Part shown: piece by piece, positions 506 through 31,242 of the stretch
How the letters are laid out: each line of letters opens with the position of its first letter
Position numbering within the stretch: the first letter of the stretch is position 1
NCBI GenBank assembly: GCA_000004695.1
Contig: CM000150.2
Coordinates: 2,560,001 to 2,624,000, forward strand
Length of the DNA: 64,000 bases
Direction: 5' to 3'
Source of the DNA: Dictyostelium discoideum
Lineage: Eukaryota
Program-made: the position numbers and the translations under genes
Notes under the pieces: model-generated
Told to the model about the DNA's origin: nothing
Databases searched by the model: none
Seen by the model: the letters and a program-made list of their open reading frames with translations, nothing else

Positions 506-578
506 CGCCCAACGGGGGGCTCGAACCCCCGACCACCAGATTAAGAGTCTGGCGCTCTACCGACTGAGCTAGCCGGGC
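506..578 (-). tRNA. tRNA-Lys (anticodon CUU)
   Basis: The reverse complement reads GCCCGGCTAGCTCAGTCGGTAGAGCGCCAGACTCTTAATCTGGTGGTCGGGGGTTCGAGCCCCCCGTTGGGCG. It has a 7-bp acceptor stem (two G-U pairs), the D-loop AGTCGGTAGA, anticodon loop CTCTTAA (CTT at positions 34-36), T-loop GGTTCGAGCC, discriminator G, and no encoded CCA. It is near-identical to eukaryotic tRNA-Lys(CUU). Confidence 0.9.
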
Positions 579-25970: not shown

Positions 25971-26242
25971 TTAATTTCTTTTTATATGTTTTGCTTGTTG
26001 TTCAGATATATTTTCAAAAATATATTGAGTTTGATGTGATTGTTGTTGTAATTGATGTAAATGTTTCATTGAAGTTGTTTTAATTAATGGTGGAGTTGTT
26101 GATGTTGATGGTTGTTGTTCATCATATGATATATATTGAAATTGTTGTTTCAAATTACCACTACTTCCATGTTTTGGTAAAATGTGAACCTGTTTTTTAG
26201 TGGTTGTATTTGTAGTGGTAGTCGTTGTAGTTGATGTTGGCC

Positions 26243-26315
<73 letters not shown>

Positions 26316-26453
26316 TAAATTTGTATTATGAATTTCATTTGATTTATTTAATTTAACTAAACCATTTATACTACTATCCAAATTATTTTCGTAATCCAAT
26401 ATTAAATTATTTGAACTCCTTGATACAGGAATTTTTATTTTACTAGAATTTAA

Positions 26454-26492
<39 letters not shown>

Positions 26493-26728
26493 TTCAGAAT
26501 CGGAATCATTTAATGGTGAAGATGTATTACTTTTTTCATAAATTAATAAAAGATCATAAATTGAATTTGCCATTTTTCTTTTGAAACTATTATGTTCAGT
26601 TTTAAAAAACTCCAATTTTTGTTCTAAACTTTTTATATATTCAGTTTGTTCTAATATTGTTTTTCGTTGACTATGAACTATACCTTGTAAATCATTATTA
26701 TCAATGATCGGACTATTTGGATATGATA

Positions 26729-26792
<64 letters not shown>

Positions 26793-27022
26793 ATTATTAA
26801 TATTATTGATATTATTATTATTTGATTTTGAATCCAAATCAAGACTTCTTTTCTTTTTTAAAGGTGGTTCATTTGACCATTCATTCTCATTATTATATTG
26901 TTGTTGTTGTTGTTGTTGTTGTTGCTGTTGTTGGTATTGCTGTACATGTAGATTATTAGATGAGGCGTTTCTTGAATAACTACGAACACCACCACCACTG
27001 TTATTACCATTATTATTATTAA

Positions 27023-27077
<55 letters not shown>

Positions 27078-27127
27078 GTTATTATTAAATGATTGTGGAG
27101 GAGAATCATCATTTGAAAGTTCATCAA

Positions 27128-27164
<37 letters not shown>

Positions 27165-27750
27165 ATTATTATTATTATTATTATTATTGTTATTATTATT
27201 ATTATTATTATTAATATAATCTCTACTTAATTTTTTATTTGGTGTTGAATGAGAAGGTGAAGAAATATTTCCAGATAAAGATAATTCATTATTTCCATTT
27301 TGTAAACTATGTAATTTTGAATTTGTTGGTGGCGTTGAATTTGTTGATGGAGGCGATGATGGTGATGATCTATTGCCATTTGACGGTTGGGATTGAGATG
27401 ATGATGATAATGAACTATTAGTTGAGTTTGATGTTGTTGATGAAGATGATGAAGTGGTTGTGGTTGTAGTTGTTGTTGTTGATGATGAAGGTGAAGATGA
27501 AGATGCAGTGGATGTTGCACCTTGAACATTTGAAATGAATTTATTTAAATCTGAAAATATTTTATTTTGTGATAATTGAGAGATATGACTACTTAATTGA
27601 TCAAATGTTGATGAAAAATTATTATTATTATTATTATTATTATCATTATTTAAAATATCATCAACAATCAATGGTAATTCCTTTCTATTATTAATTGGTT
27701 TTGATGGTTTATTTTGTTGTTGTTGTTGATGATGGTGTTGTTGTTGATAG

Positions 27751-27783
<33 letters not shown>

Positions 27784-27983
27784 AGATATTTTGAAGAAAG
27801 TACAGGTGAAGATTCTGGTGAAATTAATGAGGTAACATTTTGAATACTATTACAAGATGAAGATAGAGAAGAAGAAGATGTAGAATTCTTTAAATTATTT
27901 TTTTTATTATTATTATTATTATTTCCTGGTAAATGAAATAAATTACCATTAATTGAATGATGAGATGAAGCGAATTCTTCCAT
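25971..27983 (-). CDS. Low-complexity (poly-N/Q/S/T-rich) protein with a short coiled-coil segment, 670 aa, unknown function
   Basis: Single long ORF MEEFASSHHSING.. with multiple N20-30 runs, a Q-run, H/Q tracts and S/T tracts. One non-repetitive predicted helical stretch, KTILEQTEYIKSLEQKLEFFKTEHNSFKRKMANSIYDLLLIYEKS. Coding (AAT)n / (CAA)n repeats are typical of Dictyostelium proteins. Confidence 0.55.
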
Positions 27984-29348
27984 TTCTTTTTTTTATTTTT
28001 ATTTTTATTATTAAAAATAATTTTATTTATTTATTATTATTAATTTATTTATTATTTATTTATTTATTTAATTGTTTATTTATTATTTACAATATATTTT
28101 ACAAAGTAATTTTTTTTTTTTTTTTTTTTTTTTATAAGATTTGTTTAGGAAATGTTGAATAAAAAAAATAATAATAATAAATAAAAAAAAAAAAAAAATT
28201 TAACAAAACAAATAACACATTAAGGTTTTTTTTTTTTTTTATTTGGATTCTATTTTTTAATTTTTATTTTATTAATTAAAATAATATTAAAAACAATACA
28301 AAAAAAGTTTGCACCAAATCAAACAAAATGAGTGGGTGGTGGGAATTTATTTAAAAAAAAAAATAATAATAATAATTAAAAATAATTAAAAAAATATATA
28401 AATAAATATAAATAAAAAAAATCAAAACACCCATATGGTAAAAAATTTAAATTTTTTTATGTAAATTTTAAAAAAAAAGGATAACTTGTTGGAAATCAAA
28501 AGAACACAAACCAAGATTATTTTAATTTTATTAATTTAATTTTTTTTTTTTTTTTTTAAATTTTTTTTTATTATTATTTTTAAATTTTGATTAATCACTT
28601 TAATTGGAAATAAAACTGTTAATACAAAAAGAACATATGAAATGTGTTATTGTGAGTGTGGGTCTAATTGAATATACACAAAAAACTTTTTATTTAAAGA
28701 TTTAAATTCCTTTTCAAAATTTTTTTTTTTTTTTTTAATTTTTTTTTTTTTTTTAATATGTAAAATAATAAAAAATGATAGAAAAGGTCATGTTTACACA
28801 CCCTATATCCATATTTGGATTTTTTATAAAACAAAGATGATTATTATTATTATTATTTTTTTTGATTTGTTTTTTAAAAAACATTAATAAAAAAAAAAAA
28901 AAAAAATTTTTTTTAATATTTTTTTTTTTTTTTTTTTTTGGTGTGTTGTTGGTATATATCTTATGATCAAGCAATTATTTGAAAAAAGTTCAAAAGAAAT
29001 AAATTACCATTTTATCATTATTTGATTAAACAAATGAACAGATTTATTAGTTTATCATTATCTTTATTACATAAGTGAGAGAATAAACTTTTTTTTATTT
29101 ATTTTTTTTTTTATTTAATCATTTTCATTATTATTTTTTTTTTTTTTTTCAAAACTTTGAAAATGTAATAAATCTACTTTATTAAATTGGTTAAATAATT
29201 TCAAGAAATTTCAAAAAAAAAAAAAAAATATGGTTAAATAAAAAAAATTAAAGTTTTGAAAATATTGACTAAAAAAAAATAAAATAAAAAAAAAAAAAAA
29301 AACTTTTTTTTATTGAAATGTTTTTTTTTTTTTTTTTTAAATAAAAAG

Positions 29349-29356
29349 ACCCATAA
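29349..29356 (+). promoter_or_regulatory. DUSE (Dictyostelium upstream sequence element) ncRNA-promoter motif ACCCATAA
   Basis: Exact match to the consensus [AT]CCCA[CT]AA, inside a 3.2-kb AT-rich intergenic region. A GC-richer island begins about 60 nt downstream, the spacing reported for Dictyostelium ncRNA genes. Confidence 0.45.
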
Positions 29357-29415
29357 CTGATCAGTATAATTCTCTTAAAATTTAAAAAAATATTAATCAT
29401 AATTATTCTTTACGA

Positions 29416-29565
29416 AACTGACCATTAAGAGTACTCCTTCGAAACAATTTTGAGTGGTTGTTAGTAAGGCTTTTTCTGGCAAAAAGAGAAATTAGAGAGA
29501 GATCTTTAAACAACTGGGTTTAGAAATTCTATGATCATTTCGGTTGTGCCAAGATCTCACATTTT
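29416..29565 (+). ncRNA. Candidate small ncRNA (about 150 nt) downstream of the DUSE; possibly H/ACA-like (ends ..CTCACATTTT)
   Basis: A GC-normal island in AT-rich DNA. Internal hairpin CTTTTTCTGGCAAAAAGAG. Terminal inverted repeat GAGATCT(29495-29501)/AGATCTC(29552-29558). It ends ACA followed by 3 nt and then a T-run, consistent with an H/ACA 3' end plus Pol III terminator. Exact ends are not determinable from sequence alone. Confidence 0.3.
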
Positions 29566-31242
29566 ATTAATAAACTTTAAAATATTATTAAATTATAAAT
29601 TTAATAAAAAAAAAAAAATAAAAAAAAAAAAAAATAAAAAAAAAAAAAGCTTATTATAAACAAATAAAATTTTAACCTTTTTAGAAAAAAAAGTAATAAT
29701 AGTTAATAACTTTTTTAAATCTATTAAAATTAATTTAATTTTTTTCAAATATTAATTCTTTGAAGAGTTTATTTATATTTTAAAAGTGAAAAAAAAAATA
29801 AAATAAAAGTTACTTTTATACATAAAATATTAATAAATTACATAAATTATATTCCCTATATTCAAATTTTTCTATTCATTGATTATAATTGTTTAAAAAT
29901 TTTTTTTTTTTTTTTTTTTTTTTACTATTTACAATTTTTATTAAAAATTTATTTTCTTTAATTGATATTAGATTTAGTAAACATTAATTATTATTCTTAT
30001 TTTGTTTTGTTTTTTTAATGTTTTTTTTTTTTTTTTTTAATCATTTTTTGTGATTAAATCGGAAAAAAATAATAATATTAATAACCACACTACATAAAAT
30101 TATATGTAAATAGATAATAGATTCAATTCAATTAAAAGAAAATAATTTTTTTTTTTTAAAAAAAAAAAAAAGAAACAAATAAAAATAATAATAACAACTA
30201 ATAATAATAATTTGTTCCCAAAAAAGAACCATATTTTTTTTTTTTATTGTTTTTTTACATTTAAATTTTTTTAAAAATTAATATGCCTCTTCATTTAAAT
30301 AATAGAAATAGAAAATAATTTTATATTACATTTTTTCCAATTAAAAGAAGGATTTGAAAAAGTAAAAAAAAAGAAAAAATAATAGTATATTCATTGTCAA
30401 TTTTTTAATCATGATATATATATTTTTTTTTTTAATTAAAAAAAAGATTACTATTTTTGTGTGTTGTTTATTATTTTTAAAAAAAAAAAAAATTATGAGT
30501 GGTGTTTATTACTATTTTAATGATTATTTAATATTCACATATATTAAACTATTAATACTCTATTTTTATATTTTTTTTCTATTTTGGATTAAAATAATCA
30601 TTTTTAGTAAGAAATTAAAAAACAATCTAAAATTTCTTTAAAAAAAAAAAAAAGAGATTGTTTTGGTATTAATTAATTTTTTTTAAATTAAAAACTGTTT
30701 TTTTTTTTTTTTATTTTATTTCTATTTTATTTATATTATTATTTTATTTTACCTCTATTTTTTTTTTTTTTTATTTTAACTTACTATTTTGAAAATTGTG
30801 TTGAAATTTATTTTTTATTTTAAAAATATCTCCGGTGTTCATTGGTATACTTTAATTTATTGATCATTCCAGTGCAAATGTAATTCCATTGGTCCAAAAA
30901 AAAAAAATTAAAAAATAAAAATAAAAAAAATTAAAATTGTTTATATTTTGACATTTAAAAGAATGGATCTAAATTTAGGTTAGGCATAGTAATTGTTATA
31001 AAATTATAATAAAAAAAAATGTGTATGGCGGATTTTTTTTTTTGTTTTTTTTAATTTAATTTTTTTTAATTTAATTTTTTTATTTTATTTTATTTTATTT
31101 TATTTTTTTTTTTTTTTTTTTTTTTTATAGTCGAATTATTATATCAACAAAAATACAAATAAAATAATAAAATAAAATAATAAAATAAAGTAATATTACG
31201 ATTTTATATATATATATATATATATTCAATTAAAAAGTAGAA

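Follow-up and report, generated by a model that had tools for sequence, protein, structure and literature searches.

Does an exact copy of the DUSE promoter element in a long, AT-rich spacer of Dictyostelium discoideum chromosome 1 mark a small RNA gene, and to which RNA class would such a gene belong? The spacer lies at positions 27984-31242 (3.3 kb) of the window (the whole 64-kb stretch of DNA analyzed), near DDB_G0269358, and is bordered by a poly-N gene with a 670-amino acid open reading frame (25971-27983, minus strand) and by a GRAM/TBC RabGAP gene starting at ~31235 on the plus strand. The annotations of the assemblies contain no gene calls within 27984-31242. The poly-N product occurs in identical form only on contig JBTAPE010000039.1 (GCA_054883475.1), and the neighboring CBS-domain protein has the same sequence as AX4 DDB_G0269358, which is on the 4.92-Mb chromosome 1. 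A tRNA gene at 506-578 (minus strand; Rfam, 66.9 bits) is the sole match to an Rfam family in the 64-kb window, and no paralogue of the candidate RNA was found in that same stretch.

We propose that the spacer probably encodes an independently transcribed box H/ACA small RNA of ~151 nt, present in Group-4 dictyostelids (a snoRNA, possibly a scaRNA), and that the gene is most likely previously uncatalogued. Larsson reportedly screened the D. discoideum genome in 2008 for GC islands with a DUSE, so that an earlier prediction of this locus is possible, as it is in the candidate lists said to have been given by Aspegren in 2004 and Hinas in 2006.

Putative promoter element and GC island

The DUSE described by the sequence-only reading is present, with ACCCATAA at 29349-29356 on the plus strand matching [AT]CCCA[CT]AA exactly, and this is a putative promoter element. 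The GC island that was said to stand out from AT-rich DNA is likewise evident, with a GC fraction of 0.33 to 0.35 at ~29400-29550 and of 0.07 to 0.14 in the flanks; it starts 60 to 65 nt downstream of the DUSE within a surrounding spacer of ~10% GC, and the composition around the element runs from 0.11 upstream through 0.15 in the gap to 0.35 at +60 to +210 and 0.09 beyond. Taken alone, the 8-mer occurs at chance frequency, with nine copies of [AT]CCCA[CT]AA observed in the window and 11.4 +/- 3.0 expected, and hence no enrichment. The setting of the copy at 29349 is, however, unique among the nine, being the only one in AT-rich spacer with a GC island ~60 to 70 nt downstream; the other eight are in coding DNA or have no island.

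A DUSE at ~60 nt is a known signature of dictyostelid noncoding RNA promoters (PMC7919456, PMC3188802), and here it is found about 60 nt before the predicted start. We infer a mature RNA of ~151 nt at 29412/14-29564 on the plus strand from the rule that transcripts begin at DUSE +60-63 (PMC7919456, PMC3188802), from the onset of conservation at CTTTAYGAAACTG, and from an end at ACA plus 3 nt. The 8-mer is part of a wider block, AAAGACCCATAAC, that is identical across all of the D. discoideum-clade genomes; seven of the genomes have an exact DUSE, and the D. purpureum version, TCCCATAG, differs at one position and lies at the equivalent distance. The interval from DUSE to first stem is 65 nt in D. 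purpureum and 68 to 69 nt in the other genomes, and such a fixed spacing of 65 to 69 nt in all taxa is unlikely to arise by chance because a C-rich 8-mer is rare in DNA of 10% GC. [quoted passage not shown] In the mechanism that we envisage, the DUSE at about -63, perhaps with an A/T block near -30, would recruit the snRNA-type transcription machinery.

The locus thus far resembles the DUSE-driven noncoding RNA genes of dictyostelids (Class I RNAs and snRNAs), with which it shares the DUSE ~60 to 65 nt upstream, the intergenic location, a GC-richer body in AT-rich spacer, and retention of the DUSE in D. purpureum. It departs from them in being about three times as long, in having neither the Class I 11-nt motif nor the Class I terminal stem, and, relative to the snRNAs, in having neither a family match nor a conserved Sm site.

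A conserved two-hairpin unit in Group-4 dictyostelids

Orthologous loci were retrieved through the flanking proteins, and the gene order NIF3, SDR, CBS, poly-N gene, spacer, and TBC was compared. Synteny is present in another D. discoideum strain, two D. cf. discoideum genomes, D. citrinum, D. dimigraforme, D. firmibasis, and D. purpureum; in P. violaceum it was seen on the left side. The position and orientation of the candidate RNA do not differ among the Group-4 genomes compared, all of which have it, and the ~150-nt plus-strand candidate said to follow the DUSE is borne out as one conserved unit in eight syntenic genomes representing six Group-4 taxa. Within the D. discoideum clade the entire spacer aligns at 72 to 90% identity, and the 3' half of the candidate is one of several peaks at which 0.85 to 0.90 of the columns are identical in all four comparisons, the spacer median being 0.47. 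In D. purpureum only three short BLAST HSPs match the 3.3-kb spacer, one of which is the 3' hairpin (nhmmer E = 2.7e-6); D. purpureum keeps the TCCCATAG element, an unchanged UUUAAACAACUG and UUCGGUUGUGCCAA, and both terminal stems with other sequences, and its GGUUGU segment ends 11 nt before the ACA. Conservation ends at the ACA and the flanks diverge, as is expected if this is the 3' end of an H/ACA RNA. Searches of the syntenic P. violaceum spacer and of the C. fasciculata locus with nhmmer, covariance model R1, and Rfam found no homologue.

Folding of the plus strand yields a hairpin (RNA positions 6-68), a 17-nt A-rich hinge, a second hairpin (86-145), and then ACAUUUU, and the D. purpureum sequence folded alone also gives hairpin, hinge, hairpin, and ACA. 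The layout thus emerges from the folding check that the sequence-only reading had proposed, but the energy does not exceed that of shuffled sequences (-34.4 kcal/mol; z = -1.26), and the stability as such is not significant. The minus strand folds at -22.6 kcal/mol (z = +0.35), and the plus strand is the one favored because of its many G-U pairs.

The 5' hairpin (63 nt; 29419-29481, plus strand), as delimited by folding and comparison, follows a short 5' leader. A small hairpin proposed here, CTTTTTC-TGGCA-GAAAAAG, was mis-transcribed, since the sequence is CTTTTTCTGGCAAAAAG, with a CTTTTT/AAAAAG stem and a CTGGC loop, and the comparative data show that it is not the conserved structure; the UGGCA segment pairs instead with the 5' UGACCA and makes up the lower stem of the 5' hairpin. 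Both D. firmibasis and D. purpureum have C-G in place of an A-U pair of this lower stem (UG-CCA/UGGCA), a compensatory change; the D. purpureum stem is CUGUUCC/GGGACAG and that of D. discoideum CUG-CCA/UGGCA. The middle stem changes from A-U to G-C in D. dimigraforme. Five inner pairs of the apical stem (AACAAUU/GGUUGUU) are invariant. The 3' strand of the hairpin is conserved, and the 5' strand is variable and re-pairs in shifted registers. We note that position 29439 is T here (CCUUCG) and A in the seven other genomes (CCUACG), which shifts the pairing register of the 5' hairpin. This hairpin showed neither a conserved open guide pocket nor a fit to the 14- to 16-nt rule, and it appears to be structural.

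The hinge (29482-29491, plus strand) has candidates for an H box of the form ANANNA in AAAAGA at 29482-29487 and, as an alternative, AGAGAA at 29486-29491. Immediately after the 5' hairpin, genomes of the D. discoideum clade have AAA[A/U]GA and D. purpureum has AUAAAA, a match of low information in a hinge this rich in A. The 3' hairpin (60 nt; 29499-29558, plus strand) consists of the lower stem GAGAUCU/AGAUCUC, the invariant strands UUUAAACAACUG and UUCGGUUGUGCCAA, and a variable apex, and its lower stem corresponds to the 7-nt inverted repeat noticed earlier, which is correctly placed with GAGATCT at 29499-29505 and AGATCTC at 29552-29558. In D. purpureum the lower stem is AGACUUU/AAAGUCU, with two compensatory pair changes in a register-corrected reading, the MAFFT alignment having placed the D. 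purpureum 3'-stem strand one column off; on the uncorrected alignment, RNAalifold finds two pairs, at other columns, in which both bases have changed, and it treats two pairs as broken.

The ACA box (29559-29561, plus strand) is invariant in all eight genomes and lies 0 to 1 nt after the 7- to 8-bp lower stem in every species. The 3' end was described as CTCACATTTT, with ACA at 29559-29561 followed by TTTT at 29562-29565 (plus strand), and these letters are as given, but their interpretation as a Pol III terminator does not hold. Most D. discoideum-clade genomes have TTTT after the ACA, D. dimigraforme has only TTT, and D. purpureum has no T-run there (ACAAATAAAAA), and a Pol III type-3 terminator (four T or more) is rejected as a conserved feature. 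Because the sequences diverge right after the ACA (TTT in D. dimigraforme and AAAUAAAAA in D. purpureum), the T-run is not a conserved terminator; it probably supplies the last three nucleotides of the RNA and is not needed as a Pol III terminator.

Could the conservation instead reflect a cis-regulatory DNA module of a flanking gene, with a DUSE-like 8-mer nearby by chance? The chance frequency of the 8-mer alone is compatible with this, as are other blocks in the spacer (28284-28343, 28584-28673, and 28974-29063) that are equally conserved in the D. discoideum clade. DNA elements, however, do not require compensatory substitutions within stems, and the strand asymmetry arising from G-U pairs favors RNA, so that we regard a module of this kind as highly improbable.

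The spacer contains further conserved sequence at 28280-29090, in blocks at 28284-28345, 28425-28520, 28584-28673, 28764-28823, and 28945-29075 that are 85 to 95% identical among all five D. discoideum-clade genomes (the value being the share of alignment columns that are identical throughout the four comparison genomes; spacer median, 47%). These could belong to the promoters or 5'-untranslated regions of the flanking genes, or they could represent a small exon or RNA that is not annotated. The 28945-29075 block is 130 nt long and AT-rich, with two short ATG-initiated open reading frames, and its end (...CATAA, then GTGAGAG) resembles a splice donor. A DUSE-like ACCCATAT with one mismatch is at 28429-28436, inside conserved AACACCCATATGGTAA, and conserved GGATAACTTGTTGGAAATCAAAAGAACACAAACCAAGATTA (28479-28520) lies ~50 nt downstream of it; the distance from this DUSE-like sequence to a start is not fixed because a poly-A run widens the spacing in D. 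firmibasis. The sequence AAATGTG at 28641-28647, that of the TGTG box of Class I RNA promoters, is also within a conserved block and is followed by a (TG)n-like GTGAGTGTGGG; it has neither a DUSE ~60 nt upstream nor a Class I-like RNA downstream.

Class membership of the candidate RNA

The candidate shares with eukaryotic box H/ACA snoRNAs a length of ~150 nt, the succession of hairpin, ANANNA hinge, hairpin, and ACA plus a predicted 3 nt, a lower stem of 7 to 8 bp directly before the ACA, and conserved strands around a variable apical stem, together with, in the open-pocket model, 14 to 15 nt from pocket to ACA and a plausible 6 + 4 bp rRNA target around an unpaired UN. It differs from them in several respects: the arms of the pocket are in part complementary to each other and are paired in the predicted free RNA, no pocket is recognizable in the 5' hairpin, the target is a candidate one, and no Rfam family matches. 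With the conserved unit, the invariant ACA, the lack of an Rfam match, and the distinction from sno18 (see below), the sequence-only view of an undescribed small RNA with an H/ACA layout stands, less its Pol III terminator.

D. discoideum must pseudouridylate its rRNA, and it has dyskerin, Nop10, Nhp2, and Gar1. The transcript would fold into hairpin, H-box hinge, hairpin, and ACA, an arrangement supported by the compensatory changes, and by analogy with the family it would assemble with dyskerin/Cbf5, Nop10, Nhp2, and Gar1 and be trimmed to ACA plus 3 nt. A single box H/ACA snoRNA, sno18/DdR-18, has been reported from D. discoideum (PMC6912284, PMC8817022), and it has the organism and the proposed class in common with the candidate. 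Both published sno18 primers are absent from the window even with three mismatches allowed, and the candidate is therefore not sno18/DdR-18.

The absence of a known snRNA, as claimed from the sequence, agrees with Rfam, in which the D. discoideum locus has no match at a cutoff of E <= 10 and the D. purpureum orthologue matches nothing beyond noise (E > 3). A spliceosomal or Sm-class snRNA is rejected on this ground and on the variation of the Sm-like AAUUUUGA in close relatives. Box C/D is rejected as well, as the boxes are in the wrong order, with CUGA at the 5' end and an AUGAUCA-like sequence close to the 3' end, and as CUGA occurs in the 3' hairpin only in D. purpureum. If the candidate were instead a structured, DUSE-driven small RNA from another class or a new one, for instance a regulatory RNA specific to the lineage or the RNA component of an Sm/Lsm-type RNP, the ACA and the two hairpins would be coincidental and the invariant ACAACUG/CGGUUGU helix would be a protein-binding site. 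We think this unlikely, notwithstanding that the pocket is closed in the minimum-free-energy fold, that the inner helix is invariant on both strands without covariation, and that an AACAA...GGUUGU helix motif is present in both hairpins; the nonsignificant rRNA target match, the lack of an Rfam H/ACA match, the restriction of the RNA to Group 4 among the loci searched, and the complementarity of 29458-29469 to the Class I motif CCUUACAGCAA also fit it. Against it, the Sm-like AAUUUUGA is not conserved (close relatives have AAUAUUGA, AAAUUUAA, and AAUAUUAA), the Class I complementarity is missing in D. purpureum, and an ACA 0 to 1 nt past a 7- to 8-bp stem, with conservation stopping there, is what an H/ACA 3' end predicts. 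To our knowledge, no other RNA class predicts this combination.

The Class I RNAs themselves are 42 to 65 nt long with a terminal stem and the 11-nt CCUUACAGCAA beside the 5' stem; the candidate is ~151 nt and, as had been stated, contains no CCUUACAGCAA, and a Class I assignment is rejected. We note that UUGUUAGUAAGG, a conserved segment of the 5' hairpin (29458-29469), can form an 11-bp duplex with CCUUACAGCAA that includes one G-U pair and one bulge (-10.2 kcal/mol), that 39 of 1,000 shuffles do as well (p ~0.04), and that the complementarity is absent in the D. purpureum orthologue, for which reason the match is probably due to chance. No binding partner is known for the unpaired Class I 11-nt motif. 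A Group-4-specific, DUSE-driven RNA that uses the H/ACA scaffold for something other than guiding, either as a processing or assembly factor acting through its invariant helix and loop or by pairing of UUGUUAGUAAGG with the Class I 11-nt motif, is conceivable and seems doubtful to us.

An H/ACA-type RNA that is not a guide could also be a processing chaperone like U17/snR30, a Cajal-body RNA, or the H/ACA domain of telomerase RNA, readings that we jointly hold to be rather improbable. The candidate does share with U17/snR30 the confinement of conservation to the internal strands of the 3' hairpin, the loop 7 nt upstream of the ACA, and the variable 5' hairpin, and UGAG/UAAG in the apical loop of the 5' hairpin is CAB-box-like. 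The conserved strands UUUAAACAACUG and GGUUGUGCCAA nonetheless differ from the U17/snR30 motifs m1 (AUAUUCCUA) and m2 (AAACCAU) that Atzorn et al. reportedly described in 2004, and U17/snR30 is rejected because the loop strands UUUAAACAAC and GUUGUGCCAA are without m1 and m2 and no Rfam family, SNORA73 and snR30 included, matches. A search of seven diverse rDNAs for an snR30-type arrangement of complementary sites found none, nor any matching pair of 18S sites. As for telomerase RNA, the candidate has no conserved template, there being no conserved C-rich template for an A(G)n telomere repeat and the sole C-rich stretch, CUCCUUC, varying in close relatives; it too is rejected.

Predicted guide pocket and rRNA target

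If the RNA is a box H/ACA guide, as we favor, its functional unit would be the 3' hairpin, whose two invariant strands would form a guide pocket 14 to 15 nt upstream of the ACA. The proposed arms are UUUAAACA at 29505-29512, of which AACA would pair with rRNA UGUU, and UGUGCCA at 29545-29551, of which UGUGCC would pair with rRNA GGCACA (both plus strand). Both pocket strands are invariant, and the apical region and the lower stem change. The top of the pocket is 14 to 15 nt upstream of the ACA if the upper stem closes at A-U/C-G/U-G/G-C, the canonical value being 14 to 16. The minimum-free-energy fold has four pairs (ACAA/UUGU) across the pocket, and what remains is an internal loop of 3 to 4 nt that is 11 nt from the ACA; the pocket would exist only if the ACAA/UUGU pairs open. 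The ability of the arms to pair with one another would be explained by a local palindrome, ACA-UC-UGU, in the predicted target.

Targets were scanned in 15 near-complete eukaryotic rDNA units, contaminants in bacterial assemblies that served as a proxy for D. discoideum rRNA. The large-subunit (LSU) sequence 5'-GGCACA[UC]UGUU-3' (6 + 4 Watson-Crick pairs) is the top target in 14 of the 15 units, and shuffled pocket arms equal its score in 10 to 12% of cases when a single rDNA is scanned and in 7% when seven diverse rDNAs are, so that the match is not significant. The pocket fit to GGCACA[U]CUGUU, scored as it was on the rRNA of other eukaryotes, is only suggestive. The site is just 3' of the P-loop GGGGCGG, CACAUCUGU is present in 74 of 104 LSU copies, and the D. 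discoideum 26S P-loop context, GCUGGGGCGGC at Gm2952, matches. The predicted target is the U in LSU rRNA 5'-GGCACA[U]CUGUU-3', which would be ~26S U2962 if the sequence there is as in most eukaryotes, within a predicted D. discoideum stretch of GGCACAUCUGUU at ~26S 2956-2967. No pseudouridine is known at the equivalent position, U2629, in the yeast modification map.

A metagenome scan with the D. discoideum 26S motif matched two contigs, neither of them dictyostelid. A 21-nt eukaryotic LSU motif matched at least 120 GTDB bacterial and archaeal contigs, none of which is dictyostelid and many of which carry near-complete 18S-5.8S-28S units; with this many contigs matching, contamination by eukaryotic rDNA is widespread in the GTDB collection.

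If the candidate is confirmed as a second H/ACA member, the DUSE may drive this class of RNA too, and the candidate could act as a seed for covariance-model searches for the missing dictyostelid H/ACA repertoire. It would also make a putative modification site beside the ribosomal P-loop testable by knockout. More broadly, GC islands downstream of a DUSE, in combination with synteny, can still reveal unannotated RNA genes in this model genome.
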